Of a stretch of DNA of 58,133 nt, positions 8,560 to 26,015 are shown one piece after another. Each line of letters begins with the position of its first letter. The stretch's first letter is position 1. Source of the DNA: Phycisphaerae bacterium (GTDB lineage: Bacteria > Planctomycetota > Phycisphaerae > SM23-33); the NCBI GenBank assembly GCA_049510055.1, contig JBEKZI010000004.1, forward strand, positions 1 to 58,133, read 5' to 3'. Made by a program: the position numbers and the translations under genes. A model generated the notes under the pieces. The model did no database searches. It was not told where the DNA came from and saw nothing but the letters and a program-made list of their open reading frames with translations.

Positions 8560-9309
8560 ATGCGTGCTTCCAGAAAATTTGTATTCACGTTGTTCCTCGT
8601 GATGGTCGCAGTGGTATGTTTCGCGCGTCCGGCGGCAGCGGCTGTGTTTACGGATCCCCTTTCTTCGGGCCTCGACTCGAACTACTGGGTGGCCGAAAGC
8701 AATCAGCCTCTGTACACGATCGGTACGGGTGACGCGGCTGTTCGATTGAGCAAACCGCAGGGCGGAAACTATGGTTTCCAGTACCTCATGATCGACTTCA
8801 CGCAGGAACTTCACGGCAACTTCGATGTCTCCATTCAATTCAAAAATGCCCTCATAGACCGGGTGGACGGGCGCCCGGGGAACCAGGTACAGCTCGGCGC
8901 CTGGTTCGGGGGCTCCTACATGTACGTCGTTCGCAGCGACGAATGGTTATGGAGCGGAGCGAACATAGGAGACAACTATCACGCCTACGAGGGCCAGACG
9001 GAGCATGCGGGGACGCTGCGAGGAATAACCAGTACCACGGATAACTTTGGAACCATGAGAATCACTCGCGTCGGCTCCGTCGTTACCGGTTATTACGACG
9101 GAATCCAACTGTATTCCGCGTCCTACAACGCAGAATCGGCAACCGTCGCGTTTATGCTCCAGAACAACGGAACGACGGATGCCACGTCGGTTGATTTCTA
9201 TAATTTCAGTGTAACGGCTGATCAAATCGTTCCCGAGCCTGCCACGCTGTCGCTTCTGCTTCTCGGCGGATTGACGATGCTGCGGCGACGGCGCGATAGA
9301 CGGCGCTAA
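8560..9309 (+). CDS. PEP-CTERM sorting-domain secreted protein with a jelly-roll/LamG-like body
   Basis: Signal peptide (FTLFLVMVAVVCFARPAAA). C-terminal [26 protein letters not shown] is a PEP motif plus TM plus Arg cluster. Strong RBS AAGGAGG. Visibly lower GC than its neighbours. Confidence 0.9.
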   Translation: MRASRKFVFTLFLVMVAVVCFARPAAAAVFTDPLSSGLDSNYWVAESNQPLYTIGTGDAAVRLSKPQGGNYGFQYLMIDFTQELHGNFDVSIQFKNALIDRVDGRPGNQVQLGAWFGGSYMYVVRSDEWLWSGANIGDNYHAYEGQTEHAGTLRGITSTTDNFGTMRITRVGSVVTGYYDGIQLYSASYNAESATVAFMLQNNGTTDATSVDFYNFSVTADQIVPEPATLSLLLLGGLTMLRRRRDRRR

Positions 9310-10607: not shown

Positions 10608-12008
10608 TTATTTCTTGCCCGCCTTGCGCAGGACCGGCGTGGGGTGACCCTTCAAGTCCGCCAGACCCTTGGCCAGCTCGTCGTCCGACAGGGGATAATC
10701 GCGCAACTTGCCCTGGAGGTAGGCGTCGTAGCCGGCCAGGTCCATCAATCCGTGGCCTGACCAGTTGAATAGGATGACCTTTTCCTTGCCTTCGTCTTTG
10801 GCCTGGCGGGCCTGGTCGATGACGGCGGCGATGGCGTGCGAGGTTTCCGGGGCGGGGATGAAGCCTTCGGTCCTGGCCCAGGTGATGGCGGCCTCGAAGC
10901 ACTTAGATTGCGGATAGGATTCGGCGAGGATGAGCCCCTCGACCATCGCCTGGCTGACCAGCGGCGCCATGCCGTGATACCGCAGCCCGCCGGCGTGGGT
11001 CGCCGGAGGCACGAAACCGTGCCCCAGCGAGTGCATGGCCAGCAGGGGGGTCATCTTGGCGACGTCGCCGTGATCGTAGGCGAACGGGCCGCGGGTGAGC
11101 GTTGGGCAAGATTCCGGCTCGACGCCGACGATGTCGATCGTTTCCCCGTGGATCTTGTCGCAGACGAACGGGAAGCTCAGCCCCGCGAAGTTCGACCCGC
11201 CGCCGCAGCAGCCGATGATCACGTCCACGTGCTTCTCGCCCGCCTTGGCCAGTTGCTTCTTGGCCTCCAGGCCGATGACGGTCTGGTGCAGCAGGACGTG
11301 GTTGAGCACGCTGCCCAGGCTGTAGCGCGTCTTGCCGGTTGAGTCGGCGACGGCGGCCTCGATGGCCTCGCTGATGGCGATGCCCAGGGAGCCTGGCGTG
11401 TCGGGCATCTTGGCCAGGATGTCGCGCCCGGCTTGGGTTTCATTTGAAGGGCTGGCCACGCACTGGGCGCCCCAGACCTGCATCATCATCTTACGGAAAG
11501 GCTTCTGGTCGAAGCTGACCCGCACCATGAACACCTTGCACTCCAGGCCGATCAGGGAGCACGCGAAGGCCAGCGCGCTGCCCCATTGGCCGGCGCCGGT
11601 CTCGGTCGTCAGCCGCTGAATGCCGAACTGTTTGTTGTACCAGGCCTGGGCGACGGCGGTGTTGGGCTTGTGGCTGCCGGGAGGGGAGACGCCTTCGTCC
11701 TTGTAGTAGATTTTCGCCGGCGTGCCCAAGGCCTCCTCCAGCCGCAGGGCGCGGCGCAGCGGCGACGGCCGCCATATCCGCAGCAGCCCCAGGACCTCGG
11801 TGGGGATGTCGATCCACCGCTGGGTGGAAACCTCCTGCTCGATGATGTTCATGGGAAAGACCGGCGCCAACATCTGGGGCGTGATGGGCTTGCCGTCCGG
11901 TCCTAAAGGCGGCAGGGGAGGGTGGGGCAGGTCCGCGGCCAGGTTGTACCAACGCCGCGGCATGTCCTTTTCGTCCAGTAAGAACTTTTGTGAGGCAAAG
12001 GCACTCAT
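10608..12008 (-). CDS. trpB2: TrpB-like PLP-dependent enzyme (tryptophan synthase beta, TrpB2 type)
   Basis: 466 aa. GSHKPNTAV (PLP lysine), [20 protein letters not shown], and the TrpB2-specific long N-terminus ([13 protein letters not shown]). Confidence 0.88.
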
Positions 12009-12153
12009 TCGGTTTCACTCCTGGCAAAAATTATTTTGCCGCTCGATTCCCACCAAGCATACCGCAAAAGGCCTCCTGCGGCCATCTCTCGACGTGAGGC
12101 AATGAGCCAGGGGAGTGGGTGAAAAATTTTTAATCAATTTTAAATTTTCTTGC

Positions 12154-12182
12154 TTGACGGTCCATGCCAGTATTTATACATT
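12154..12182 (+). promoter_or_regulatory. Candidate promoter of the merR-like/flagellar operon
   Basis: TTGACG (12154-12159), 17 nt, TACATT (12177-12182), preceded by an A/T tract (AAAATTTTTAATCAATTTTAAATTTT) that could act as an UP element. Confidence 0.35.
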
Positions 12183-12254
12183 TTGTAAAACGTAAAACAT
12201 GAATAGAACGTTCGACAAGCACAACTCCTTAGAACAAGCGTAATTCCTGAGAAT

Positions 12255-12701
12255 ATGACGAGCGAATCACATCTAAGCCAATATCCAGCAGATCAGACCG
12301 GCCCGGTGAGCGGCGCCGCTGAAGAACGCGAACGCGAAAAAAGATTTTCTCCTGTGACCGCCAATCGCCTGGGAGCCGCCGGCGGCCTGGCAGCCGGTCC
12401 GCAGCGGCGCCAGAGGCCCCCCAAGCTGTACCGCATCGGCGAGGTCGTGGACTACTCCGGCGTCAGCCGGCAGACCATCCACAATTACGCCACGATGGGG
12501 CTGATCCACGAGAGCCGCTGGACGAACGGCGGCCACCGGTTGTTCGACGAGTCGGTGTTCGAGCGGCTGGACCGCATCGCGGAGATGAAGGCCGCCAACA
12601 AGTCGCTCCAGCAAATTCGCGATCACTTCGCCAAGATGGACGCCTCCCCGGCCGGCGACGGCCCGGCGGGGCAGGAGCCGCAAGACATGACGTCAGCGTG
12701 A
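12255..12701 (+). CDS. MerR-family HTH transcriptional regulator (short, no recognisable effector domain)
   Basis: LYRIGEVVDYSGVSRQTIHNYATMGLI...GGHRLFDESVFERLDRIAEMK is a MerR-type winged HTH plus the start of the dimerisation helix. It has a roughly 57-aa low-complexity N-terminus. Confidence 0.8.
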   Translation: MTSESHLSQYPADQTGPVSGAAEEREREKRFSPVTANRLGAAGGLAAGPQRRQRPPKLYRIGEVVDYSGVSRQTIHNYATMGLIHESRWTNGGHRLFDESVFERLDRIAEMKAANKSLQQIRDHFAKMDASPAGDGPAGQEPQDMTSA

Positions 12702-12783
12702 CCGACGCCAGGGCCGCCAGCCGCCGAACGTGAGGCGGTGCCTCAAGGGCGGCGAACCAAGCCCCGGTCATGGAGGACCGGAC

Positions 12784-14682
12784 GTGATAGGCAAGGACAG
12801 CGTCAAAGAAGTCGTCGGCCTGGTGCGAACCCGCCTCGCCGGCCTCAGTCGCCGGGCCCGCTGGATCGCGGCGATAGCGGCGGGGGCGGTGCTGTTCGCC
12901 GCGTTGTGGGCGACCGTAGCCGGGTTTGGAAACCAGAGGGTTCCGCTGGACACCACCGGTCTGAACGCCGCGGACCTTGCCACGGCCCGGCGGATGCTGG
13001 CGGACAGCGGCATTTCGTCTCGGCTCACGGATGGCCGGTTGATGGTCCGCGCCAAGCAGTTGGCCGCCGCCACGGAGATCATCGCCCCCCTTGCTCAGCG
13101 GCCCGAAGACGCCGCCGAGTCGCTGGCGGCGCTGGCGAAAGAGGACGACATCTGGCGGACGACCGCCCAGAGCGATAAGCGATGGCAGGCCGCCAAGATG
13201 GCCGCCCTCAGCCGGCTGGTGGAGAAGTTCCCCGCCGTGGCCTCCGCTACCGTGCTGTACGAGCCGGGCAGCCCGCGCGGCTTGGGCGGGGCTGGCCATG
13301 AGCCCACCGCGGCCGTGCGGGTCACGATGAAGCCGGGGGCGACGCTGAACCGCTCGATGGCCCTGGCCATCGCGGACCTGGTCGCCGGCAGCATCGCGGA
13401 CATGAGCGACCGCAACGTGCGGGTCATCGACGGCAGCGGGCGCAGCTACCGCTTCGACGCCGAGAGCGGCGACGAGAAGGAACTCCAACGCCGCTGCAGT
13501 ATCGAGACGTATTACCACGAAAAAGTCCACGCGGCCCTGAGCTACATCGACAAGGTGGTGATCGGCGTCACCGCCACGGGCAAGGACGATCCAGCCGCGG
13601 CGCTGGCCGTTTCGGTGGCCGTGCCGCGAAGTTATCTGGTCGCCGTCGCCCGCTCCAACGCCGCGGACCCCTCCGCCGCCGATAAGGTGCTGGACAAGAT
13701 TCGCCAGGCGGCCCAAGCCGCCGTGGCCGATCGGCCCTGCCAGGTGAAGGCGGATTGGTATTACGACGCCGAGGCCGATGCTCTAGCCGCGGCTGCGTTA
13801 TCACCGAGCGGAGCGTTCGGTTGGGGCAGCCTTCTGATGGCCGTCCTCGTCTCCTCCGTCGCCGGCGGCGGGGCGGTGCTGCTGGCGAAGCGCGTGACGC
13901 TTCGACGAGCCTCTAGGGGCGCGAAAGAACAAGATATCTCCGCCAATCCCCAGGCCGCGGAAAGCGGTAGCCCCGTCAGTCCGCAGGAGGGGCCCTGGGA
14001 TTTCCTGGCGCACCTTTCCTCTGAAGAAATCGCCTCGCTGGTCGCCTACGAGCATCCCCAGACCGTCGCGATCGTCCTGGGGCAGTTGGCGCCCGCCGCC
14101 GCCGCCGCGGTCCTTGCGGCTCTGAGCGAGGAGACCCAAGCCGCCGTCGCCCGGCGCGTGGCCGTTCTGCACCAGGTGGATCCGGTGGTGATCGCCGAGG
14201 TCGCCCGGACCCTGGCGCAGCGCGCCGCCCGTCAGGCCGCCGGCGGGCCTTCGGCGGCCGGGCCGGAAGGCCACCTGGCCGAAATCCTCCGCCACGCCGG
14301 CTATGCCACCGAGAAGGCCGTGCTGGAGGCCCTGGCCGAGCGGGCGCCTTCGCTGGTGGAGGCGATCCACCGGCGGATGTTCAGCTTCGAGGACATTGCC
14401 CAGTTGCCTTTGGACCGTTTGCAGCAGGCCCTGGCGCCGGTGGATGCCGCGGAGCTTGCGGTGGCCCTGCGGACGGCCGGCGAGGACGTCAAGGCGAAGG
14501 TCTTTGGCGCCCTGTCGTCCGAGACCCGCCGGAAGGTGCGGGAAGAGATGGAACGGATGGGGCCGGTCCGGCTCAGCGAGGTCGAGGCCGCCCAGCAGCG
14601 CGTGGCTGAGGCGGTGCGGCGAGCCGGCAGCGGCGAGTACCTCTCCGAGTCGGCCCGGCAGGAAAAACAATTGCTGGCCTGA
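12784..14682 (+). CDS. fliF/fliG: Fused flagellar MS-ring / rotor protein: FliF-like N-terminal part with FliG middle and C-terminal domains
   Basis: Two TM segments bracket about 300 aa with FliF/SctJ-like stretches. The same frame then carries EHPQTVAIVLGQL and MFSFEDIAQL...MGPVRLSEVEAAQQRVAEAVRR (FliG_M/FliG_C). GGAGG lies 7 nt before GTG 12784 (tracked ORF starts at 12730). Confidence 0.85.
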   Translation: MIGKDSVKEVVGLVRTRLAGLSRRARWIAAIAAGAVLFAALWATVAGFGNQRVPLDTTGLNAADLATARRMLADSGISSRLTDGRLMVRAKQLAAATEIIAPLAQRPEDAAESLAALAKEDDIWRTTAQSDKRWQAAKMAALSRLVEKFPAVASATVLYEPGSPRGLGGAGHEPTAAVRVTMKPGATLNRSMALAIADLVAGSIADMSDRNVRVIDGSGRSYRFDAESGDEKELQRRCSIETYYHEKVHAALSYIDKVVIGVTATGKDDPAAALAVSVAVPRSYLVAVARSNAADPSAADKVLDKIRQAAQAAVADRPCQVKADWYYDAEADALAAAALSPSGAFGWGSLLMAVLVSSVAGGGAVLLAKRVTLRRASRGAKEQDISANPQAAESGSPVSPQEGPWDFLAHLSSEEIASLVAYEHPQTVAIVLGQLAPAAAAAVLAALSEETQAAVARRVAVLHQVDPVVIAEVARTLAQRAARQAAGGPSAAGPEGHLAEILRHAGYATEKAVLEALAERAPSLVEAIHRRMFSFEDIAQLPLDRLQQALAPVDAAELAVALRTAGEDVKAKVFGALSSETRRKVREEMERMGPVRLSEVEAAQQRVAEAVRRAGSGEYLSESARQEKQLLA

Positions 14683-14694
14683 ACGAGATAAGAC

Positions 14695-15495
14695 ATGGCA
14701 CGGGTCATTAAGGCTGAAAATCAGGCGAACGCTCCCACCGACGGGGCGGTGCTGCGGCTGACGGATTTCGTCGCCGAGGCCCGGGTCGTCGTGCTGGAAG
14801 CCCGCAAGGAGGCCGCCCGCATCGTCGCCGAGGCCCGCGCCAAGGCGGAGCAGGCCGAGCAAGCCGCCGCCCGTCGCGGCTACGAGGAAGGTTTCGCCCG
14901 CGGCCGCAACGACGGCTATACCGATGGCTGCCAGGCCGGCTCGCGCCAGGGGATGGAGGCCTCAGCCGGGGCGGCCGGCGGGGCACTGTCCTGCGCTCAG
15001 CGGATTGCCGAGGAACTGGCCGCCGCCCGCGACGGACTTGTGGAGCAGGCCCGACGGGAGTTGCTGGACCTGGCCGTGGCGATGGCGGAGCGGGTCGTGG
15101 GCGTCGTGGCGGCCAGAGACGTCGCCGCCGCCCAGGCCAATCTGGTCAAGGTGCTGGAGATGGCCGGCTACGCCAAGGCCATCACGATCAAGGTCAATCC
15201 CCGCCAGCTCCAAGCCATGCGTGAACACTGCCACCAGGCCGTCGAGGCCTTGGCGATCAAGGGCCGCGTCGAGTTGGTCGGCGATCCGAGCATCAGCCCC
15301 GGCGGCGTGAAGCTGCTGGCCGGCGGCGGGCAGATCGACGCGACCATCGAAGGACAACTGGCCTACATCATTGAGGCCCTGGTCGGTCCGGCGACGACGG
15401 ACATGGGACGCTACGAGTCGCACAGCCGCGAGGAAGCAGCCGATCCGCACGGCCAAGCGGCGACGGGCGAGACGAAAGAACATGGGTGTTTTTGA
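14695..15495 (+). CDS. fliH: Flagellar assembly protein FliH (export ATPase stator/regulator)
   Basis: Position between fliF/G and fliI. Ala/Glu-rich coiled N-half and a FliH-like C-half (LLDLAVAMAERVVG...ITIKVNPRQL...GGVKLLAGGGQIDATIEGQL). Confidence 0.8.
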   Translation: MARVIKAENQANAPTDGAVLRLTDFVAEARVVVLEARKEAARIVAEARAKAEQAEQAAARRGYEEGFARGRNDGYTDGCQAGSRQGMEASAGAAGGALSCAQRIAEELAAARDGLVEQARRELLDLAVAMAERVVGVVAARDVAAAQANLVKVLEMAGYAKAITIKVNPRQLQAMREHCHQAVEALAIKGRVELVGDPSISPGGVKLLAGGGQIDATIEGQLAYIIEALVGPATTDMGRYESHSREEAADPHGQAATGETKEHGCF

Positions 15496-16873
15496 GACAC
15501 ATGCACGAGCGATGCGGCACGTTCAGCCGCTGGGCGTCAGCGGCCGCGTGAGCGCCGTCCGCGGACTGACGGTCAGCGTCTCGGACTTCCCCGCCCCCAT
15601 CGGCGCCGCCTGCCGCGTGGAAGGCATGGGCGGGGCGGTGGAGGCCCGCGTGGTGGGCTTCGCCGACGAGCGGACGCTGGTCATGCCGATGGGCGCCATG
15701 ACGGGCATCTGCCGCGGCGCCCGCGTGATCCTGACCTCCTGCCGCCAGACGGTGGCCATGGGCGAGGCCGTGCTGGGGCGGGTGCTGGACGGCGCCGGCC
15801 GGCCCATCGACGGGCGCGGGCCGGTCGCGGCCAAGGAGCACATGCCCATTTGGCCCGAGCCGCTGGCGGCCTTGCAGCGGCGGCCGATCGATCAGCCGCT
15901 GGGCACCGGCGTCCGCGCGATCGACGGCCTGCTCACCGTCGGCCGCGGCCAGCGGATGGGCATCTTCTCCGGCTCGGGCGTGGGCAAGAGCATCCTGCTG
16001 GGCATGATCAGCCGCTTCACCGCCGCCGACGTGACCGTCATCGGCCTGATCGGCGAGCGCGGCCGCGAAGTCCGCGACTTCATCGAGAAGAACCTCGGCC
16101 CCGAAGGCCTGAAGAAATCGGTGGTGGTCGTCTCCACGGGCGACGAGCCGCCGCTGCTCCGCGTGCAGGCCGGGGCGGTCGCGGCCACGGCGGCGGAATA
16201 CTTCCGCGACCGCGGCGCCGACGTCGTGCTGCTGGTGGACTCCTTGACGCGCCTGGCCACGGCCCAGCGGCAAATCGGCCTCGTGGCTGGCGAGCCGCCC
16301 ACGACCAAGGGCTACACCCCCAGCGTGTTCAACATCCTGCCGCAACTGCTGGAGCGCAGCGGCCGGACGGAACGCGGCTCGGTCACCGGCTTCTACGCCG
16401 TGCTGGCCGAGGGCGACGATCTCAACGAGCCCGTCAGCGACGCCGTCCGGGCCGTGACCGACGGGCACATCCATCTGTCGCGCGAGCTGGCCAACCGCGG
16501 CCAGTATCCCGCCATCGACTGCCTCCGCAGCGTCAGCCGCGTGATGATCGACCTGGTGGACGCCCCGCACCGCCTGGCCGCCAAGGAACTCAACCGGCTG
16601 ATGACCCTCTACGCCCAGGTGGAGGACATGGTCAGCATCGGCGCCTATCGGCCGGGCACCAGCGCGGACTTCGACCTGGCCATCAAGGCCATGCCGTGGA
16701 TCCGGTCCTTCCTGGCCCAGGGCATCGATGAGCCGGAGGCCTTCGCGGACACTCGCGGTCGGCTGCTGGAGCTTCACAAGCAGATCATGGACGTCAAGAC
16801 GTCGATGGGCGGCGCCGCCGGTTCCGGTGAGCCGGCACGGCCCGTCGGTTACGGAGAACGGAGAACGTCATGA
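15482..16873 (+). CDS. fliI: Flagellum-specific ATP synthase FliI
   Basis: Walker A GSGVGKS and Walker B VVLLVDSLTR. T3SS-ATPase motifs GERGREV, PPTTKGYTPSVF and GQYPAIDCLRSVSR. ATG 15482 overlaps the fliH end by 14 nt. Confidence 0.95.
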   Translation: MGVFETHARAMRHVQPLGVSGRVSAVRGLTVSVSDFPAPIGAACRVEGMGGAVEARVVGFADERTLVMPMGAMTGICRGARVILTSCRQTVAMGEAVLGRVLDGAGRPIDGRGPVAAKEHMPIWPEPLAALQRRPIDQPLGTGVRAIDGLLTVGRGQRMGIFSGSGVGKSILLGMISRFTAADVTVIGLIGERGREVRDFIEKNLGPEGLKKSVVVVSTGDEPPLLRVQAGAVAATAAEYFRDRGADVVLLVDSLTRLATAQRQIGLVAGEPPTTKGYTPSVFNILPQLLERSGRTERGSVTGFYAVLAEGDDLNEPVSDAVRAVTDGHIHLSRELANRGQYPAIDCLRSVSRVMIDLVDAPHRLAAKELNRLMTLYAQVEDMVSIGAYRPGTSADFDLAIKAMPWIRSFLAQGIDEPEAFADTRGRLLELHKQIMDVKTSMGGAAGSGEPARPVGYGERRTS

Positions 16874-17325
16874 GGTCGGACAAGCAGGATCGCCGTCTTT
16901 CGGCACTTTGGAGGATACGTCGCCAGGATGAGGACACATGCCGGTTGGCTTTCGAATCGGCCCGGTCGCGGGTGCATGCGGCCGAGACGCACGTGCGACG
17001 GCTGCGGGACCTGCTGGAGGTCCACACAGCCGCCGCTCGCACGGCCCTGCCGAACGATCCCGCCGCGATGGCGAGGTACCGCCAGTCGGCGGCCGAGCTG
17101 AACGCCGCCCTGGCCGATGCCAACCGTTTTCTGGCTGAGGCGAGAGTAGAACTGGAGCACCGGCGCGTGGAGCTTGAGGAAGCCATGCGCCAGCGCAAGG
17201 CAGCCGAGACATTGCAGCATCGCGAAGCGACGGCTGCGGCTTCCAACGAAAACCGCCAGGAAACCCGCGCCGCCGACGACCTGCACGCCACCCGCCAGGC
17301 CGCCAAGACTGCCTCGCAACCGTAA
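16870..17325 (+). CDS. fliJ: Flagellar export chaperone/stalk protein FliJ
   Basis: 151-aa predicted coiled coil directly after fliI, with an ATGA overlap. Size and position are typical of FliJ/SctO. Confidence 0.7.
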   Translation: MRSDKQDRRLSALWRIRRQDEDTCRLAFESARSRVHAAETHVRRLRDLLEVHTAAARTALPNDPAAMARYRQSAAELNAALADANRFLAEARVELEHRRVELEEAMRQRKAAETLQHREATAAASNENRQETRAADDLHATRQAAKTASQP

Positions 17326-17333
17326 GATCATCC

Positions 17334-17567
17334 ATGAATAAGCAAGTCAACGTGCGACTGGAGCTGGGCCGGCGGCTGATACCGGCCGCCGAGGCGTGGC
17401 GGCTGGACATCGGCGGCGTAGTGGAGCTGGACCGCCAGGCCGATGACCGCGTGGACGTGTACGCCGACGGCCGGCTCGTCGCGCGCGGACAGCCCGTCGT
17501 GGTGAGCGGCAAGTTGGCTGTTCGCATCGAGGAAATCGTCTCGCCGTATGCAGGGTCGATCAGATGA
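17334..17567 (+). CDS. fliN: FliN-like SpoA-domain protein (77 aa, bare C-ring/sorting-platform domain)
   Basis: VRLELGRRLIPAAEAWRLDIGGVVELDRQADDRVDVYADGRLVARGQPVVVSGKLAVRIEEI matches the FliN/SctQ C-terminal SpoA pattern. Confidence 0.85.
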   Translation: MNKQVNVRLELGRRLIPAAEAWRLDIGGVVELDRQADDRVDVYADGRLVARGQPVVVSGKLAVRIEEIVSPYAGSIR

Positions 17568-18157
17568 AGGCAAACGAGCCCCCAATAACTCGTTGGATGG
17601 CTGCCGCGATGATAATCGCAATCTTTGGCGCCGCCACGATGTCGGCGGCCCAGGAACTTTCTGCCCAGACAGCCCCGCCGGCCTCGGCCACCGCGTCACA
17701 GCCTGCGGCGAGCAACCCACTGGAGAGCAAACCGCTGGCCCGCGGCGATCACGGCATCGCCGCCGGCGACCTGTGGAGTTGGGTGCGGCCCCTGGCGGCC
17801 TTGGCCGTCGTGGTCGCCGTGATCCTCCTGCTGCGGGCGGTGTTGAAGCGGCTCGGACGCAGTGGCCGGATTGCCATCGGCGGGCAGGTCGTACAGGTGC
17901 TGGTTCGCTCGCGGCTGACCTCCCGCTGCGAGCTTTGCCTGGTCCGGTGGGGCAAGCGGTTGCTGCTGATAGGTCTGGGTCCTGCCGGCCCGGTGGCCCT
18001 GGGCGAAATGAGCGATCCACAGGAGGCCGCCGCCGTGCTGGCTGAGTTGGAGTCGAAGTTGAAAAAACCCGCCGGCGCCGCAAGCGGCGAGGCGATCCGC
18101 GACGCGGCGGAAAGAATCCGTGCCCGCCTGTCAAACGACGAAAGGCTGCGCGGTTGA
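17564..18157 (+). CDS. fliO: Flagellar biosynthesis protein FliO (long form)
   Basis: TM helix (VRPLAALAVVVAVILLL) followed by VQVLVRSRLTSRCELCLVRWGKRLLLIGLGPAGPVAL, the FliO core. Sits between fliN and fliP. ATGA overlap with fliN. Confidence 0.75.
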   Translation: MKANEPPITRWMAAAMIIAIFGAATMSAAQELSAQTAPPASATASQPAASNPLESKPLARGDHGIAAGDLWSWVRPLAALAVVVAVILLLRAVLKRLGRSGRIAIGGQVVQVLVRSRLTSRCELCLVRWGKRLLLIGLGPAGPVALGEMSDPQEAAAVLAELESKLKKPAGAASGEAIRDAAERIRARLSNDERLRG

Positions 18158-18984
18158 TGCGAAGGAACGCACGTCATCCTGATTCGGCACGACGGCCCGG
18201 CGCGGCCTGGCTGCTGGCTGTCGGCGTTGCTGTCGCGATGCTGTCGGCCGGGGCCGCCTGGGCCGCAAGCGGCGGGGCGGCGGCGCCCCAATCCGCGCCG
18301 GCGGGCCTGCCCAAGGTCCTGCCGGACATGCAGAACCCCTCCACGATGAGCGGCCTGGTGCAGTGGCTGCTGCTGATTACGGTCCTGGCCGTCGCGCCGG
18401 CAGTGGCGGTGATGGTCACGTGCTTCACGCGGATCATCGTCGTGCTGGGGCTGCTGCGGCAGGCGCTGGCGACCCAGCAGCTCCCGCCCAATCAGATTCT
18501 CTTCGGCCTGGCGCTGCTGATGACGCTGGTGGTGATGGCCCCGACCTACATGGCCGTGCATCAGGACGCCGTGGCGCCCTACCTGGCGGGCAAGATGGGC
18601 TGGCAGGACGCCTGGGGGGCCGCCCAGAAAGACGTGCGGGCCTTCATGATCCGCCAGATCTCCTCCGCCGGCAACGAGCAGGACGTGTACCTGTTCCTGG
18701 GCAAGGACCAAGCCGGCCAAAGCAACCTGACCTGGAGTGACGTGCCGACGCTGTCACTGATCCCGGCCTTTGCGGTCAGCGAGTTGAAGGTGGCGTTCCT
18801 GATCGGCTTTCGAATCTATCTGCCGTTCCTGGTGATCGACATGCTCGTGGCCTCGATGCTGGTTTCGATGGGCATGCTGATGCTACCGCCGGTGCTGATC
18901 TCCATGCCGTTCAAGCTGCTGATGTTCGTGCTGGCCGACGGCTGGCACCTGGTGGTCGGCACGCTGATGAAAAGTTTCCAGTGA
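18157..18984 (+). CDS. fliP: Flagellar export gate protein FliP
   Basis: Signal peptide, then TCFTRIIVVLGLLRQALATQQLPPNQILFGLALLMTLVVMAP and VSELKVAFLIGFRIYLPFLVIDMLVASMLVSMGM. TGATG overlap with fliO. Confidence 0.95.
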   Translation: MRRNARHPDSARRPGAAWLLAVGVAVAMLSAGAAWAASGGAAAPQSAPAGLPKVLPDMQNPSTMSGLVQWLLLITVLAVAPAVAVMVTCFTRIIVVLGLLRQALATQQLPPNQILFGLALLMTLVVMAPTYMAVHQDAVAPYLAGKMGWQDAWGAAQKDVRAFMIRQISSAGNEQDVYLFLGKDQAGQSNLTWSDVPTLSLIPAFAVSELKVAFLIGFRIYLPFLVIDMLVASMLVSMGMLMLPPVLISMPFKLLMFVLADGWHLVVGTLMKSFQ

Positions 18985-19007
18985 ACAACGTGAGCAAGGA
19001 GTCGACC

Positions 19008-19265
19008 GTGGACGCAAGTCAAGCCATCGACCTCGCACGCCAGGCGGCCATGCTGACGCTGGTGATCGCCGCGCCGGTGCTGGTGGTGGGGCTGATCGTG
19101 GCGCTGCTGGTGGGCGTGCTCCAGGCGGCCACGCAGGTGCAGGAGCAGACGCTCAGCTTCGTGCCCAAGATGGCGGCCATGATGCTGGCGGCGTTGGTGG
19201 TCGGCCCGTGGATGCTGTCGCGCGTCGTGGAATTCGCCAAGGAGATGTTCGGCAAGCTGCCGTAA
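19008..19265 (+). CDS. fliQ: Flagellar export gate protein FliQ
   Basis: LQAATQVQEQTLSFVPKMAAMMLAALVVGPWM is the FliQ signature. AAGGAG lies 6 nt before GTG 19008. The tracked ORF starts at GTG 18981, overlapping the fliP stop. Confidence 0.9.
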   Translation: MDASQAIDLARQAAMLTLVIAAPVLVVGLIVALLVGVLQAATQVQEQTLSFVPKMAAMMLAALVVGPWMLSRVVEFAKEMFGKLP

Positions 19266-19271
19266 ATCGAC

Positions 19272-20054
19272 ATGGATATCGGTTCGCTCAATTCGGTGTG
19301 GGTGTACACGACGGTGCTGGTGATGGCCCGCTGCGGCGGGATCTTTTTGGTGGCGCCGGTGTTCGCCCACCCGGCCGTGCCGGTTCGCCTGCGCGTGGCC
19401 ATGAGCCTGGTGGTGGGCCTGGCCGCCGCGGGACGGTTGGCGGGCGCGGCGACCCTGCCGGCCCATTGGTTGGTCGCAGGCGGGGCGCTGGCGACCGAGT
19501 TTGCCATCGGGGCAGCCATCGGCTACCTGGCGCGGCTGATATTCGTCGGCGTGGAGTTGGCGGCCATGCACGTCGGCCAGCAGATGGGCCTGGCGCTGGC
19601 CGAGGTGTTCGACCCGCTGAAGGAAGAAAGCTCCGAGGCCGTCAGCCGCCTGCTTCAGCTCACGGCGCTGGTGGTCTTCCTGGCCATCGGCGGGCATCGG
19701 ACGCTGATCGCCGCCCTGCTGGGCACGTTTGACGTGCTGCCGGCGGGCCTGGCCGCGTCGGTGTCGTGCTCGGCGGCGATGAAGGCGGCGGTGACAATGC
19801 TCGCCATGAGCTTTGTCCTGGCGCTCAAGATCGCCGCCCCGGTGCTGATCGCCATCCTGGTGGTGACCGTGGCGGACGGCCTGCTCCAGAAGACCATGCC
19901 GCAGGTGAACATCCTGACGGTCGGCTTGCCGGTGCGGGCGATGCTGGGCCTGGCGGTATTGGCCGTGAGCCTGGCGGCGATGGCCCCGCTGCTGGAAGCG
20001 GCCGTGGGAGTCCTCACGCGGCAATGGGCCGTGGCATTCCCGGCGGTGCAGTAA
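19272..20054 (+). CDS. fliR: Flagellar export gate protein FliR
   Basis: 260-aa polytopic protein with FliR-like motifs (LVMARCGGIFLVAPVF, GYLARLIFVGVELAAMHVGQQMGL) in the canonical position. Confidence 0.9.
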   Translation: MDIGSLNSVWVYTTVLVMARCGGIFLVAPVFAHPAVPVRLRVAMSLVVGLAAAGRLAGAATLPAHWLVAGGALATEFAIGAAIGYLARLIFVGVELAAMHVGQQMGLALAEVFDPLKEESSEAVSRLLQLTALVVFLAIGGHRTLIAALLGTFDVLPAGLAASVSCSAAMKAAVTMLAMSFVLALKIAAPVLIAILVVTVADGLLQKTMPQVNILTVGLPVRAMLGLAVLAVSLAAMAPLLEAAVGVLTRQWAVAFPAVQ

Positions 20055-20066
20055 ACGAAAGAACAC

Positions 20067-20855
20067 ATGGCGGACCTGCGAGAACAGATTGGCGAGCGGA
20101 CCGAGATGCCGACCCCTCTGCGTCTGGCTGAGGCCAGGCGGCAAGGGCGCGTGCCGCGGAGCGGTGAGCTGGTCGCGGCGATTGTGTGCCTGGCAGCGGT
20201 AGTGGCGGCCATCGCGATGGGCGGCGGGCTGCTCCAGGCCGCCAAGCGTCTGGTGGCCGCGATGCTGGCCGAAGCGGGCGACGTCTCCGGCGGCGGTTCG
20301 ACTTCGCTCACCGAAATCTGGAGCGGCGACGTGGCCTCGGCCGCCTGGGCCCTGGCCGGCCGGGCTGGGCTGATGCTGCTGGTTGTCGTCGCCGCAGCCG
20401 TGGCGGCCAATATCGCACAGTTCGGCCTGCTGTTTGCCGGCGAGGTGGCGGAGCCGGACTTCGCTCGCCTGTCGCCGGTGGCCGGGGTGGGCAGGGTGCT
20501 GTCGCTTCGCTCCCTCGTGCGGGCGGCCCTGGGCATCGTCAAGGTGATCGCGGTCGCCGGCATCGCCTGGTCGGCAGTGCGGGCGGCCATGCCGCGATTG
20601 ATCTCCGCCGGAAACCTGTCCGCCGCCGACTGGGCCGCCTGGACCGCCCGAGAGGTCCTGACCACGGCCCTGTGGATCACCGCGGCGCTGCTGGCCGTAG
20701 CGTTGGTGGACCTGCTCTACCAGCGATGGCAGTACCTCCAGGACCTCAAGATGACCCGCCGAGAGTTCCTGGAAGACCTGCGAAAGATGGAAAGCACTGA
20801 GCGATTGCGCCGGCCCAGGCGACGGCAATCCCAAGGCACGAACGCATGGCGATGA
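20067..20855 (+). CDS. flhB: FlhB, transmembrane domain plus linker only (C-terminal NPTH autocleavage domain absent)
   Basis: N-terminus GERTEMPTPLRLAEARRQGRVPRSGEL, 4 TM segments and the linker KMTRREFLEDLRKMESTERLRRPRRRQ are FlhB-like. The ORF stops at 262 aa and flhA starts 10 nt before the stop. Confidence 0.85.
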   Translation: MADLREQIGERTEMPTPLRLAEARRQGRVPRSGELVAAIVCLAAVVAAIAMGGGLLQAAKRLVAAMLAEAGDVSGGGSTSLTEIWSGDVASAAWALAGRAGLMLLVVVAAAVAANIAQFGLLFAGEVAEPDFARLSPVAGVGRVLSLRSLVRAALGIVKVIAVAGIAWSAVRAAMPRLISAGNLSAADWAAWTAREVLTTALWITAALLAVALVDLLYQRWQYLQDLKMTRREFLEDLRKMESTERLRRPRRRQSQGTNAWR

Positions 20856-22954
20856 ATAGTCCAACACTCAAGACCGGCACAGTGGCCCGATACCAGGGGC
20901 TGATCCTGCCCGTCGCGGTGGCCGCGATGGTGCTGGTGATCCTGGTGCCGCTGCCGCCGGAGCTGATGAACGTCCTGCTGCTGGGCAATATTGCCTTGGC
21001 GGCGGTCATGCTGCTGATGACGATCTTCGTAGCCAGCCCGCTGGAGTTCAACGTGTTCCCCTCCCTGCTGCTGGGGGCCACGCTGCTGCGGCTGGTGCTG
21101 AACCTGGCGGCCACGCGGCTGATCCTGACCTGCGGGGCCGACGGGCAGACGCTCGAAGAAGCCCAGGGGGCCGCCGGCGGCGTGCTGTGGTCCTTCGGAC
21201 AGTTCGTGACGTCCGGCTCGTTGGCGGTGGGGGCGGTCCTGTTCATGATCTTGGTGATCGTGCAGTTCGTGGTGGTGACCAAGGGCGCCGCCCGCATCAG
21301 CGAAGTGGCTGCCCGCTTCGTGCTGGACGCGATGCCGGGCAAGCAGATGGCCATCGACGCCGACCTGGCCGCCTCGCTGATTACCCCGGCCCAAGCCCAG
21401 CAGCGGCGGCAGACCGTCGCGCGCGAGGCCGACTTCTACGGGGCCATGGACGGGGCGTCCAAATTCCTCCGCGGCGACGCTGTCGCGGGTGTCCTGGTCC
21501 TGCTGGTCAACGTCCTGGGCGGCCTGTACGTCGGCATGGTGCAATACCATTGGAACCTGGCCGCCACGGCGGACCTGTTCGTCCGCCTGACCATCGGCCA
21601 GGGGTTGGTGACGCAGGTTCCGGCGTTCCTCGTGGCTATCGCCGCGGCGCTGATCGTCTCGCGGAGCAACGTCGAGGCCGATCTGAGCAAGCAAGTCATT
21701 TCACAACTCACCGCCCGCCCGCTGGCGTTGGCGATTACGGCGGCCCTGCTGGGAGCGATGGCGCTGACGTCGCTGCCGAAATTGCCCCTGCTGCTGCTGA
21801 GCGGCGGATGCCTGGGCTTGGCGCTGCTCCTGCGTCGGCGACGCGAAGCAATACCGGACCACAAAGAAGCCGCCGAACCGGCGCCGCAGCCTGCGGCCCC
21901 GGCGGCGCAAAACCTCCGCGACCTGCTGGCCGTGGAGGCTATGCGGATTGATCTGGGCTTTGCACTGATCGGCCTGGTGGATTCGCCCCAGCCGGGCGGC
22001 CTGCTGAACCGTATCGCCGCCCTGCGTCGCCAGCTCGCCACGGAGTTGGGTATCATCCTGCCGCCCATCCGCATCCGCGATAACATGGACATAGACTCTC
22101 GCGGGTATGTCCTCTGCATCCGCGGGGCCAAGGTGGCCGGCGGCAAGCTGTATCCGCGGCAGGTCCTGGCCATCCCCGGCGCGCCGGGGGACGTTGGCGC
22201 GGCGCCCGACGCCTTGATGGGCCGGCCGGCGACGGATCCGACATTCGGCGGCGAGGCGATATGGATCAGCCCCTCCCATCGCCCGCAGGCGGAGGCGATG
22301 GGCTACGTGGTGGCCGACAGTACCGACGTGCTGATGACCCACCTGGCCGAGACCGTCCGCCGCCACGCGGCCGAGCTGCTGGGCCGCCAGCAGGTGGCGG
22401 ACCTGCTGGACAACCTCAAGGCGACCGCCGCCAGCCTGGTGGCCGAGGTCGCCGCCAAGCTGACGGCCGCGCAGATTCACAAGGTGCTCCAGAACCTCCT
22501 GCGGGAGCGAGTGTCCATCCGCAACCTGGAGGGCATCCTGGAGGCGCTGTGCGACGCCGCCAGCCAGACCAACCAGGTCGAGGCGCTCACCGAGCAGGTC
22601 CGATCCGCCCTGGGCCGGTCGCTGTGCCAGCAGTTCTGTGACCGCGACGGCAAGCTGCCGTGCGTCCATTTGTCGCCGGCCCTGGAGCAGGAATTGGGCG
22701 CCTACGCGGCCGAAGGGCCGGCCTACAGCGCCGCGGGCGTGCCCCCGGCCGTGGGCAAGGCCGTCTCCAAGGCGCTGAGCGACGGGCTGGCGTCGTTTCG
22801 CCGGCAAGGGCGGCGGCCGGTCATCGTCTGTGCGCCGCAGATTCGCCCGGTGGTCCGCAAGCTGCTCGCCGGCGCCGCGCCCGAGGCGGTCGTGCTGGGT
22901 TACAACGAAATTGACTCCGTGGAAGTGGAATCGCTTGCCAGTTTAGGAATCTAA
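20846..22954 (+). CDS. flhA: Flagellar export gate protein FlhA
   Basis: 702 aa. FHIPEP motifs VTKGAARISEVAARFVLDAMPGKQMAIDADL, FYGAMDGASKFLRGDAVAG and LVTQVPAFLVAIAAALIVSR, plus a large cytoplasmic C-domain. Confidence 0.96.
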   Translation: MAMNSPTLKTGTVARYQGLILPVAVAAMVLVILVPLPPELMNVLLLGNIALAAVMLLMTIFVASPLEFNVFPSLLLGATLLRLVLNLAATRLILTCGADGQTLEEAQGAAGGVLWSFGQFVTSGSLAVGAVLFMILVIVQFVVVTKGAARISEVAARFVLDAMPGKQMAIDADLAASLITPAQAQQRRQTVAREADFYGAMDGASKFLRGDAVAGVLVLLVNVLGGLYVGMVQYHWNLAATADLFVRLTIGQGLVTQVPAFLVAIAAALIVSRSNVEADLSKQVISQLTARPLALAITAALLGAMALTSLPKLPLLLLSGGCLGLALLLRRRREAIPDHKEAAEPAPQPAAPAAQNLRDLLAVEAMRIDLGFALIGLVDSPQPGGLLNRIAALRRQLATELGIILPPIRIRDNMDIDSRGYVLCIRGAKVAGGKLYPRQVLAIPGAPGDVGAAPDALMGRPATDPTFGGEAIWISPSHRPQAEAMGYVVADSTDVLMTHLAETVRRHAAELLGRQQVADLLDNLKATAASLVAEVAAKLTAAQIHKVLQNLLRERVSIRNLEGILEALCDAASQTNQVEALTEQVRSALGRSLCQQFCDRDGKLPCVHLSPALEQELGAYAAEGPAYSAAGVPPAVGKAVSKALSDGLASFRRQGRRPVIVCAPQIRPVVRKLLAGAAPEAVVLGYNEIDSVEVESLASLGI

Positions 22955-22957
22955 GTT

Positions 22958-24134
22958 ATGGAAACGAAAATCTACTGTGCTCCCTCGATGGCCCTGGCTC
23001 TGGCGGAGGTGAAGAAGGATCTCGGCCGGGACGCCGTGATTCTGCACACCCGGCAGTTCCGCAAGGGCGGACTGTTCGGCCTCGGCGGCCGAGCGATGTG
23101 GGAGGTCACCGCCTCGGCCCACGTAAACGTGCCGCAGCGCGTGCCGGCAGGACGATATGTCCCCGTGCCGTCGACGCCGGCCGGCGACGCGGCCGTCGCT
23201 CTTGACGCCACCAGCACGGTCGAACCGCTGGGTGACGTGCTGAGCCAGAGGATGGGCGAGATCCACAACATGGTGGCCCGGCTGCTGCGAGCCTCCAGCG
23301 GCTTGGCCGCCGGCCGATTGAGCTTGCCCCTGCCGGTGGCCATGCCTGAGGAGTTGGCCAGCTGGCGGGCGCACCTCCTGCGGCAGGAACTCGCGGAAGA
23401 GACAGTCTCCGAATTGTTAAGCCAACTCCAACAGGACCTCACGCCCGCCGAGATGTCGCAGGATTCGGCCGTGCGGGAGCGGCTGGTGGACCTGATCGCG
23501 TCGCGCATCCCCGCTTCGGACGTGAGCATTCCGGCGGCGACGGGCCGGCCCCGCGTGGTCGTCCTGGTCGGTCCGACGGGCGTGGGCAAGACGACGACCA
23601 TCGCCAAGCTGGCCGCCCGGCACAAACTGTCCGCCGGCCGGCGAGTGGGCCTGGTGACCATCGACACGTACCGCATCGCGGCCGTCGACCAGCTCAAGAC
23701 CTACGCCCAGATCATCGAGGTGCCGTTGCGGACGGTCCTGAGGCCGGCGGAGCTGGCCGAGGCGATTACGTCCATGGCGGGACTGGACGTGGTGCTCATC
23801 GACACCGCCGGCCGAAGCCCCACCGACGCTCCGCGGCTACGACAGATGCAGGAGTTTCTCCAGGCGGCCCAGCCGGATGAGGTGCACCTGGTCGTCTCGG
23901 TGACGGTGGGGCCGAGCTGCGCGGCACGCGTCCTTGAGAATTTTATGCCGCTCGGCGCCAACCGGTTGATCGTATCAAAGCTGGACGAAGCCAGCACCTT
24001 CGGCATGGTGCTGAACGTCGCCTCGGCGGCCAAGGCGGCGTTGAGCTTCGTGACCACAGGCCAAGAGGTTCCGGACGACATTGCTCCGGCCAACCCGCGA
24101 CGGTTGGCCGAATTAATTGTGGGAGAAGGGACGT

Positions 24135-24145
<11 letters not shown>
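22958..24145 (+). CDS. flhF: Flagellar biosynthesis SRP-type GTPase FlhF
   Basis: GPTGVGKTTTIAKLAA, DTYRIAAVDQL, IDTAGRS and SKLDE are G1-G4 of the SRP/FlhF family. Confidence 0.93.
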
Positions 24146-24986
<841 letters not shown>

Positions 24987-25078
24987 CAACTTCTAAAATA
25001 TGGAGTTATAGGCAAGGATGCCTCAAAAAACGTCCATATCCTCCCCAGAGAACCTCGAAAAAATCTTAAGAATTCCAG

Positions 25079-25106
25079 TTGACATGGACGTTGATATACA
25101 TAGAAT
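25079..25106 (+). promoter_or_regulatory. sigma70-type promoter of fliA
   Basis: TTGACA (25079-25084), 16 nt, TAGAAT (25101-25106), in a 235-bp AT-rich gap. Confidence 0.6.
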
Positions 25107-25129
25107 GGATAATATACATAATATGGATA
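25094..25129. repeat. Tandem 18-nt direct repeat overlapping the fliA -10 box
   Basis: ATATACATAGAATGGATA (25094-25111) is immediately followed by ATATACATAATATGGATA (25112-25129), 16/18 identical. Confidence 0.8.
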
Positions 25130-25220
25130 GTTTGGGAAATATCACTGAGTGGACTGGCTTCTGAGGACTCGAGGCTGGTTAGAGATAACCAAGGCGACCA
25201 TCCAAGGAGTGACAGCAACC

Positions 25221-26015
25221 ATGAGGATGAGCACTGTAAATACCGGCACAACGGATCAGGTCCAGCAATGGTGGAAGGCGTTCCGAAAGAACGGCGATCA
25301 GGAGTCGCGGAACCATCTCATGGAACACTACCTTCCGATCGTCAAATACACCGCCGAGCGGTTGTACTCCAAGCTGCCGGAGGAGGTAGACATTGACGAT
25401 TTGATTTCCACCGGCATCTTCGGGTTGATGGACGCCATCGCGGCCTTCGACGAGAAGCGCGGCGTGAAGTTCGAGACCTATTGCGCGCCGCGAATCCGCG
25501 GGGCCATGCTGGACGAGCTGCGCTCGATGGACTGGGTTCCGCGGCTGGTGCGCAGCCGGGCCCACAAGCTCAACGAGGCCAAGCACGAGCTGGAGGCGCA
25601 GCTCGGCCGCCGTCCCGACGAAGGGGAATTGGCCAAGAAGATGCGGATGCCCATGTACGAGTTCCGCAAGCTTCAGCGCGACGCCCGGGCGGTGGGGCTG
25701 GTCAGCCTCAGCCGCAAGTGGTTCGAGACCGACTCGAACAAGGATGTCCGCGAGATCGACGTGCTGGAGGACAAAAAGAGCGACGATCCGCTGCGGACGG
25801 CGACGCGAAAGGACATCAAGGACCTCATCACCCGCGGCCTCAGCCGGGCCGAGCGGCTCATCATCATCCTGTACTATTTCGAAGAGATGACCATGAAGGA
25901 AATCGGCGAGACGCTGGACCTGTCCGAAAGCCGCGTCAGCCAGATGCACTCGGCCATCCTGGAGCGGCTGCGCCGCCAGTTGGAGAAGCGGAAGAAAGAA
26001 CTGTCGGCGGTGTGA
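25221..26015 (+). CDS. fliA: RNA polymerase sigma-28 factor FliA/WhiG
   Basis: YLPIVKYTAERLYSKLP, DDLISTGIFGLMDAIAAFD (region 2), and ERLIIILYYFEEMTMKEIGETLDLSESRVSQMH (region 4). AAGGAG lies 11 nt before ATG 25221. Confidence 0.93.
   Translation: MRMSTVNTGTTDQVQQWWKAFRKNGDQESRNHLMEHYLPIVKYTAERLYSKLPEEVDIDDLISTGIFGLMDAIAAFDEKRGVKFETYCAPRIRGAMLDELRSMDWVPRLVRSRAHKLNEAKHELEAQLGRRPDEGELAKKMRMPMYEFRKLQRDARAVGLVSLSRKWFETDSNKDVREIDVLEDKKSDDPLRTATRKDIKDLITRGLSRAERLIIILYYFEEMTMKEIGETLDLSESRVSQMHSAILERLRRQLEKRKKELSAV

Follow-up and report, generated by a model that had tools for sequence, protein, structure and literature searches.

The flagellar rotor proteins FliF and FliG are encoded by two separate genes in canonical Planctomycetota, and the question raised here is whether a single open reading frame (ORF) of a Phycisphaerae bacterium encodes the essential parts of both as one chain. 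The ORF lies on the forward strand of contig JBEKZI010000004.1 (assembly GCA_049510055.1), of which a stretch of 58,133 nucleotides (positions 1 to 58,133; hereafter the window) was analysed. The original prediction described one uninterrupted ORF with FliF topology that runs on in the same frame into the middle and C-terminal domains of FliG (FliG_M and FliG_C), and that holds neither the N-terminal FliG domain (FliG_N) nor the FliG-binding tail at the C-terminus of FliF. The order and E values of the Pfam matches bear out this layout, and the absence of both elements was confirmed by the profile matches and by a block of gaps in the alignment to canonical proteins. We regard it as practically certain that the fused architecture is genuine and conserved, and as probable that the product is a single-chain subunit of the flagellar rotor, replacing both FliF and FliG.

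The maximal uninterrupted frame spans positions 12730-14682 (+) and corresponds to 650 aa. The GTG at 12784 is the likely start of the fused fliF-fliG gene, which then occupies 12784..14682 (+) and encodes 632 aa plus a stop codon. This start is favoured because public gene calls (P0001, 632 aa), the N-termini of homologues in the family alignment, and a Shine-Dalgarno sequence all point there; the latter, GGAGGA at 12771..12776 (+), was read from the sequence and lies 7 nt 5' of the GTG. The GC content at third codon positions of the fused ORF is 0.85, which is like that of real genes in this 65% GC window. Residue numbers given below refer to the 632-aa protein unless marked otherwise, whereas Pfam coordinates follow the 650-aa numbering.

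A Pfam scan of the product gave YscJ_FliF (PF01514, residues 76-238, E 5.8e-20), FliG_M (PF14841, residues 432-502, E 8.7e-19) and FliG_C (PF01706, residues 533-632, E 1.3e-30), as predicted, with no separate FliG_N and no YscJ_FliF_C match. The C-terminal 230 aa are collinear from end to end with the FliG_MC crystal construct of T. maritima (1LKV, E 7e-41), and the C-terminal part also aligns with Salmonella FliG residues 112-322. On the N-terminal side, phmmer aligned the protein with Salmonella FliF residues 127-255, which comprise the second ring-building motif (RBM2) and the start of RBM3. The fliG equivalog profile TIGR00207 was aligned over positions 112-320 of 338, and its score of 163.3 bits stayed under the cut-off of 226.7 because the FliG N domain is missing. 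The cut-offs were not reached either for the fliF equivalog TIGR00206 (31.9 bits, cut-off 129.75) or for the SctJ equivalog TIGR02544 (23.3 bits, cut-off 161.95), and the gene context is not injectisome-like.

The domains were delineated with an AlphaFold2 model of the fused protein (17-sequence alignment, mean predicted local distance difference test score (pLDDT) of 71), hydropathy analysis and alignments. According to the model and the hydropathy layout, residues 1-26 form a short cytoplasmic helix that leads into the first transmembrane segment (TM1, residues 27-49, 12862..12930 (+)), where the Kyte-Doolittle sliding value exceeds 1.6 and the model has a helix at 23-50. RBM1 (residues ~50-105, 12931..13098 (+)) was placed from the modelled secondary structure, and the PF01514 match begins here. 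RBM2 (residues 127-216, 13162..13431 (+)) is the most conserved module of the family and was identified by PF01514, by the phmmer alignment to Salmonella FliF and by Foldseek, with TM-scores of 0.8-0.9 (normalised to the target) against FliF RBM2 chains. Foldseek of the whole model returned FliF, FliG_MC and EscJ structures. The third domain (residues 230-327, 13471..13764 (+)) is an RBM3-like domain without a beta-collar. It was assigned because its sequence aligns with FliF of canonical Planctomycetota, sharing the conserved motifs VPRSY and DWY.D, and because of its topology: when modelled alone (AlphaFold2, pLDDT 86) it kept the alpha-beta-beta-alpha-beta order of a ring-building motif. 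When this isolated domain was searched with Foldseek, nothing reached significance (best E 0.017; EscJ and PrgK only E ~0.2). TM2 (residues 348-370, 13825..13893 (+)) appears both in the hydropathy profile and as a helix in the model. The N-terminal two-thirds of the fused protein is a two-TM FliF with RBM1, RBM2 and a collar-less RBM3.

TM2 is followed by a linker rich in Arg, Ala, Ser, Gly and Pro (residues 371-402, 13894..13989 (+)). The pLDDT is below 50 at residues 373-401, which predicts disorder and fits an unstructured linker of roughly 33 aa. From residue 403 onward the model is all-helical and comprises FliG_M and FliG_C. FliG_M (residues 403-486, 13990..14241 (+)) was located by PF14841 and the 1LKV alignment and carries the EHPQ motif at 14050-14061. 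Helix MC and the Gly-Gly hinge region (residues 487-505, 14242..14298 (+)) were recognized by the same alignment and by residue conservation. These also place FliG_C, together with PF01706, at residues 506-616 (14299..14631 (+)), including the MFSF hinge motif and, within FliG_C, the torque helix (residues 578-592, ~14515-14559 (+)). A FliG_N domain hidden in the linker was considered and ruled out: the sole FliG_N match (PF14842, 442-504) overlies FliG_M and, because of this position, is taken as a cross-match between related armadillo (ARM)-like domains, while the linker itself consists of some 33 disordered residues.

To define what is missing relative to the canonical proteins we aligned eight fused proteins with seven concatenated canonical FliF+FliG pairs from Planctomycetota (L005, L007, L012, L017, L019, L060, L078). 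Two blocks are absent from the fused proteins, and the boundaries of both are sharp and common to all eight. The first covers ~80 alignment columns inside RBM3 and corresponds to the beta-collar insert; in the window protein, alignments and the model of the isolated domain place a 9-residue turn (residues 265-273, 13576..13602 (+)) at the site of this canonical ~80-aa insert. The second block runs from just past TM2 to the start of FliG_M and comprises the FliF C-terminal tail and FliG_N, so that the linker stands where these would be. In canonical motors the FliF C-terminal peptide and FliG_N co-fold and thereby join the two proteins. Divergent family members lack the same two blocks, with P0148 retaining ~15 residues at the collar site. 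Among 54 sampled family members, all 54 gave matches to PF01514, PF14841 and PF01706 and none to PF08345 (YscJ_FliF_C, the beta-collar), whereas a canonical relative showed both a PF08345 match and a genuine FliG_N (E 5e-37) at the expected place. The shortened periplasmic part noted in the original prediction is thus real and corresponds to loss of the RBM3 beta-collar.

An obvious concern with such a protein is that the fusion could be artificial, produced by sequencing, assembly or a frameshift, or that the gene could be a pseudogene of recent date. No support for this was found; on a related long contig (L001) the fliH, fliI and flhF frames are split in a way that resembles indel errors. 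The identical 632-aa protein occurs on at least 7 contigs, of which the four listed come from separate samples. An exhaustive HMMER search against 1.84 billion representatives gave 248 matches below 1e-30, and among the best 150 of these most matched in a single stretch over the full length and measured 570-680 aa. Both halves were present in 153 of the 184 proteins collected, and 136 of those were 560-730 aa long, giving at least 136 distinct full-length fused homologues with identities down to ~30%. The deletion boundaries are common across the family, the third-position GC content is typical of coding sequence in the window, and to arrive at the architecture takes two deletions that keep the frame rather than an indel, in agreement with the earlier statement that a single frameshift could not produce it. 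An artefact or pseudogene is excluded by the identical protein on separate contigs and by the number of full-length homologues, and we consider it exceedingly improbable.

The named members, drawn from two homology searches plus a cluster look-up, all belong to uncultured Phycisphaerae or Phycisphaerales metagenome-assembled genomes (MAGs). Assemblies with the fusion include GenBank CAVXDC01, CAYUYH01, CAZHEH01, CAYRVX01 and GCA_009783465.1. In the databases they appear under the names "FliG", "FliG C-terminal domain-containing protein", "EscJ" or "hypothetical". In a neighbour-joining tree of FliG_MC the fused proteins form a separate long-branch group. The representative search also returned other natural fusions of rotor proteins in metagenomes: P0147 (996 aa) combines FliM, DUF4116 repeats, FliG_M and FliG_C in one protein, and in P0157 (665 aa) FliN (FliMN_C) is joined to a complete FliG with N, M and C domains.

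Conservation within the family differs strongly between modules. Mean pairwise identity is 47% for RBM2, 43% for FliG_C and 37% for FliG_M, and drops to 20% in the linker, the length of which varies from 19 to 66 aa (median 33). This is the pattern that would be expected of a selected protein with a passive tether. Several motifs are retained: the MFxF and Gly-Gly switching hinges and the GPVRL motif are conserved, and in the EHPQ motif Glu is found in 53 of 54 sequences, His in 38, Pro in 46 and Gln in 45. In the torque helix of the window protein E587/E588 and R596 are present. The latter, equivalent to R297, is invariant (54/54), and basic residues at positions 583 and 586 are common.

In its genomic context, the fused gene takes up the place of fliF-fliG immediately upstream of fliH, within a flagellar export operon that is conserved and has all its genes on the forward strand. 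Downstream lie fliH (14695..15495; PF02108, E 2.7e-18), the ATPase gene fliI (15512..16873; Pfam ATP-synt_ab and T3SS_ATPase_C, 453 aa in public assemblies), fliJ (16870..17325; PF02050) and a fliN gene for a bare SpoA domain of 77 aa (17334..17567; PF01052, E 4e-19). These are followed by fliO, fliP, fliQ and fliR (17564..20054, profile matches), a truncated flhB of 262 aa (20067..20855) and, in 20846..26015, profile matches to flhA, flhF, flhG and, at the position of fliA, a sigma-factor gene of the sigma-70 family. Directly 5' of the fused gene is a gene for a MerR-family helix-turn-helix (HTH) protein (12255..12701 (+); Pfam MerR_1, E 1.5e-13). A consensus scan gave a sigma-70-like promoter match 5' of this gene (12154..12182 (+), 9/12 matches), which weakly suggests a possible operon start. 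The remainder of the window contains housekeeping genes, including mreB/C, PBP2, rodA, trpA/B and accA. One ORF at 8560-9309 (+) encodes a 249-aa secreted protein without a Pfam match that ends in a PEP-CTERM-like sorting signal (VPEPATLSLLLLGGLTMLRRRR). The genes flanking the window recur with identical products on the 1.07-Mb contig Ga0427938_0000002 (JGI 3300039307; L088/L090).

The order merR-fliFG-fliH-I-J-N-O-P-Q-R-flhB-A-F was found at the fused loci of four species-representative genomes (L001-L004) and on the metagenome contigs L085 and L086, and the divergent member L087 has a shorter form of the operon. The MerR neighbour is conserved in the window, in L001-L004 (65-88% identity over the HTH), in L085 and in L086, and it is not present in L087; its gene may encode a lineage-specific flagellar regulator. 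Among the species-representative genomes L001 is the closest; there each of fliH, fliI and flhF is broken into two frames (11906-14066 and 20225-21420), probably due to assembly indel errors, and the fliFG fusion itself is an intact ORF. In other Planctomycetota MAGs, a number of them labelled Phycisphaerae, fliF (546-606 aa) and fliG (342-348 aa) lie as two genes at just this place before fliH-fliI. Of the FliI proteins at non-fused loci, those of canonical Planctomycetota most resemble the one in the fused operon (52-57% identity).

The fused gene probably stems from an adjacent fliF-fliG pair that underwent an in-frame deletion across the gene junction and, separately, a deletion of the collar. 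Based on established knowledge of the motor, the RBM domains would build a ring of the membrane-supramembrane (MS) type around the FliPQR/FlhAB gate, and the covalent tether would hang one FliG_MC per FliF beneath the membrane. FliG_M would dock on FliM via its EHPQ surface, the MFxF and Gly-Gly hinges would permit switching, and FliG_C would present the torque helix to the stator protein MotA. Such a motor is expected to work like that of a motile Salmonella laboratory strain carrying a fliF-fliG deletion-fusion, probably with a smaller or re-tuned cytoplasmic (C) ring. A single-chain rotor appears feasible because the Salmonella deletion-fusion builds flagella and swims. We infer a working rotary motor and find it reasonably probable that a working flagellum uses the fused protein as its only rotor protein.

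Several observations weigh against a single-chain subunit in a working, rotating flagellum. In structures from Salmonella and Vibrio the beta-collar is the part of FliF that touches the proximal rod, as stated in a paper on engineered FliF-FliG rings (PMC11481574), and its loss removes the surface that makes this contact in Salmonella. The FlhB protein of the window stops just past the fourth TM helix and linker (…KMTRREFLEDLRKMESTE…), matching PF01312 profile positions 1-237 of 335, and thus lacks the whole cytoplasmic C-terminal domain including the NPTH site of autocleavage and substrate switching. Across the family, conservation of the acidic torque-helix pair is only partial, and the equivalents of E. 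coli FliG R281 and D288/D289 show poor conservation (e.g., Glu in 12/54 and 26/54). The rotor-stator charge pattern may be shifted in the fused proteins. Genes for FliM, MotAB, FliE, rod, hook and filament were absent from the 58-kb window and from 10 kb past either end. No cultured carrier was among the named matches and no motility phenotype is tied to the gene; for a motile Tepidisphaeraceae isolate, a description from 2026 names fliF and fliG and does not take up fusion.

The short FlhB is not peculiar to the window. Proteins of 254-280 aa recur in most fused-family operons, with flhB at 17285-18070 in L001, 17077-17919 in L003, 17657-18460 in L085 and 17815-18579 in L086; L004 is an exception, with a full-length FlhB of 362 aa. 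In a search for a separately encoded FlhB C-terminal domain, all frames of the window were free of NPTH and NPEH motifs, and such a domain may be encoded elsewhere in the genome. A non-canonical or non-rotating apparatus is possible because FlhB lacks its C-terminal domain, the collar is lost, the torque helix is partly conserved and other motor genes were not located. The fused protein could accordingly belong to a reduced, non-rotating secretion or relic apparatus derived from the flagellum, as proposed for the FliF-FliG_M protein of the Chlamydiaceae, a precedent in the same Planctomycetes-Verrucomicrobia-Chlamydiae (PVC) superphylum (PMC4768692). The collar-less FliF, the FlhB without a substrate-switch domain, the relaxed conservation of the acidic torque-helix residues and the absence of axial and stator genes nearby would all fit such an apparatus. 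Against it stands the retention of FliG_C in all 54 sampled members, where it ranks among the two best-conserved modules, whereas the Chlamydiaceae have lost it. The conserved MFxF and Gly-Gly switching hinges and EHPQ FliM-binding motif also argue against a relic, as do genes that typically accompany true flagella, namely fliO, flhF, flhG and the sigma-70-family gene at the position of fliA. We therefore consider a non-rotating apparatus unlikely.

The genome was viewed over the 58 kb of the window plus 20 kb of flanks, which leaves room for another explanation, namely that the fused gene is an extra paralogue beside ordinary fliF and fliG genes elsewhere, for example as part of a second or specialised flagellar system. 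Dual flagellar systems occur in other bacteria and offer a precedent. However, the fused gene heads the only copy of the export-gate operon that was seen, and it does so exactly in the fliF-fliG position before fliH. Furthermore, the best 80 genome matches, within which canonical Planctomycetota FliGs did score, included no second FliG locus from the four fused species-representative genomes, which argues weakly against a paralogue. This explanation appears quite improbable to us, and a single-chain subunit replacing both FliF and FliG remains the preferred reading.

The closest parallel to the fused protein is an engineered one. The fliF-fliG deletion-fusion of Salmonella (Francis et al. 1992, as cited in PMC11481574) was characterised by Sakai et al. 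2019, who report a loss of 56 aa from FliF and 94 aa from FliG (PMC6445934). The mutant assembles flagella and swims, with impaired motility, a strong clockwise (CW) bias and a smaller C31 ring (PMC6445934), as well as lower speed and unstable torque (PMC6445934; PMC7355467). The parallel drawn in the original prediction proved to be close. In both proteins an in-frame junction removes the FliG-binding region of FliF together with FliG_N and part of helix NM, leaving FliG_M and FliG_C covalently attached past TM2, and the FliG part of the window protein begins at the same boundary (residue 3 of the 1LKV construct, Salmonella residue ~112). Unlike the natural family, which is collar-less, the laboratory mutant retains the full periplasmic part of FliF with the beta-collar. 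The natural proteins further differ in having a variable linker of 19-66 aa and a long history of evolution with the fusion.

One residue makes the comparison more specific. Tyr422 (14047-14049), just before EHPQ, is at the position of Salmonella FliG D124 in the collinear alignment, and D124Y in Salmonella FliG is a suppressor that corrects the laboratory deletion-fusion; the window protein thus has the same change as the suppressor. The equivalent residue is Asp in 7/7 canonical Planctomycetota FliGs versus 7/54 fused proteins. This pattern, a correlation only, would fit a re-tuning of the FliG_M-FliM interface after the fusion.

A natural FliF-FliG fusion has been published once, for the Chlamydiaceae (Bergeron 2016, PeerJ, PMC4768692). 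That protein measures ~330 aa and comprises RBM2, an additional RBM, TM2 and FliG_M only, and the genomes hold few flagellar genes plus an injectisome (PMC4768692). The comparison with the Phycisphaerae family is based on this published description. Both fusions are natural and fall within the PVC superphylum, and both have a shortened FliF periplasmic region that lacks the SpoIIIAG-like or collar domain, with TM2 leading directly to a FliG_M-like domain and neither a FliF tail nor FliG_N. The Phycisphaerae protein differs by its 632 aa, by RBM1-3 and a complete FliG_MC, by its place at the head of a full flagellar export operon and by its diversity. It resembles canonical Planctomycetota FliF and FliG in its position before fliH-fliI and in the alignable TM1, RBM1-3, TM2, FliG_M and FliG_C, whereas the canonical proteins are encoded by two genes and have the beta-collar (PF08345), the FliF C-tail and FliG_N. 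The Phycisphaerae fusion is thus architecturally between a canonical pair and the chlamydial relic.

Engineered full-length fusions, such as Vibrio FliFG (PMC11481574) and the full-frame Salmonella/E. coli constructs (PMC6079021), likewise consist of one covalent FliF-FliG chain that forms MS rings. They retain the FliF tail and FliG_N (~104 kDa in Vibrio), unlike the natural protein, which has neither. Both full-length and deletion fusions are standard tools (PMC7355467, PMC11481574, PMC6445934). In the literature on FliF-FliG fusion in Planctomycetota and Phycisphaerae we found no published description of the present family. Natural fusion as such is not unprecedented, and the family is a variation on known fusions, not a machine of a new kind.

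The importance of the fusion is limited in two respects. The rest of the motor is assumed, and the ratio of FliF to FliG was already accepted to be 1:1. It had been argued that a covalent link enforces this stoichiometry and so bears on the symmetry mismatch between MS ring and C ring. The first part of the argument stands. The second has lost much of its relevance, since the mismatch was largely resolved towards matching 33-34-fold rings with 1:1 FliF:FliG, as summarised in PMC7355467, and a 34:34 match of MS and C ring is now established; the enforced ratio is less consequential because 1:1 is the accepted state of canonical motors.

The wider meaning of the family lies elsewhere. The co-folded joint of the FliF C-terminus and FliG_N and the beta-collar are both regarded as core features of the rotor, and a diverse, long-lived lineage has removed both. 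This amounts to a natural repeat of the Salmonella deletion-fusion experiment, in a lineage that had time to compensate for the CW bias, smaller C ring and unstable torque of the laboratory mutant. The family can be seen as a set of evolved suppressor solutions, for example at the residue equivalent to Salmonella FliG D124, and as a test of how torque is transferred to the rod without a collar. A one-chain construct would also be simpler for structural work on the junction between the MS ring and FliG. In evolutionary terms, the family is a possible bridge to the flagellar relic genes of the Chlamydiae. More tentatively, and with considerable doubt on our side, the fused protein could represent a natural minimal rotor, with a collar-less MS ring tethered to FliG_MC by a disordered linker and an FlhB without switch domain, which drives a working flagellum in free-living Phycisphaerae and perhaps shares its fusion event with the Chlamydiaceae relic. 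If there is such a minimal rotor, it could reveal a different MS/C-ring symmetry and a different coupling between rod and rotor. If the fusion event is shared, the Phycisphaerae family would be a functional, flagellated missing link that explains the origin of the chlamydial relic.

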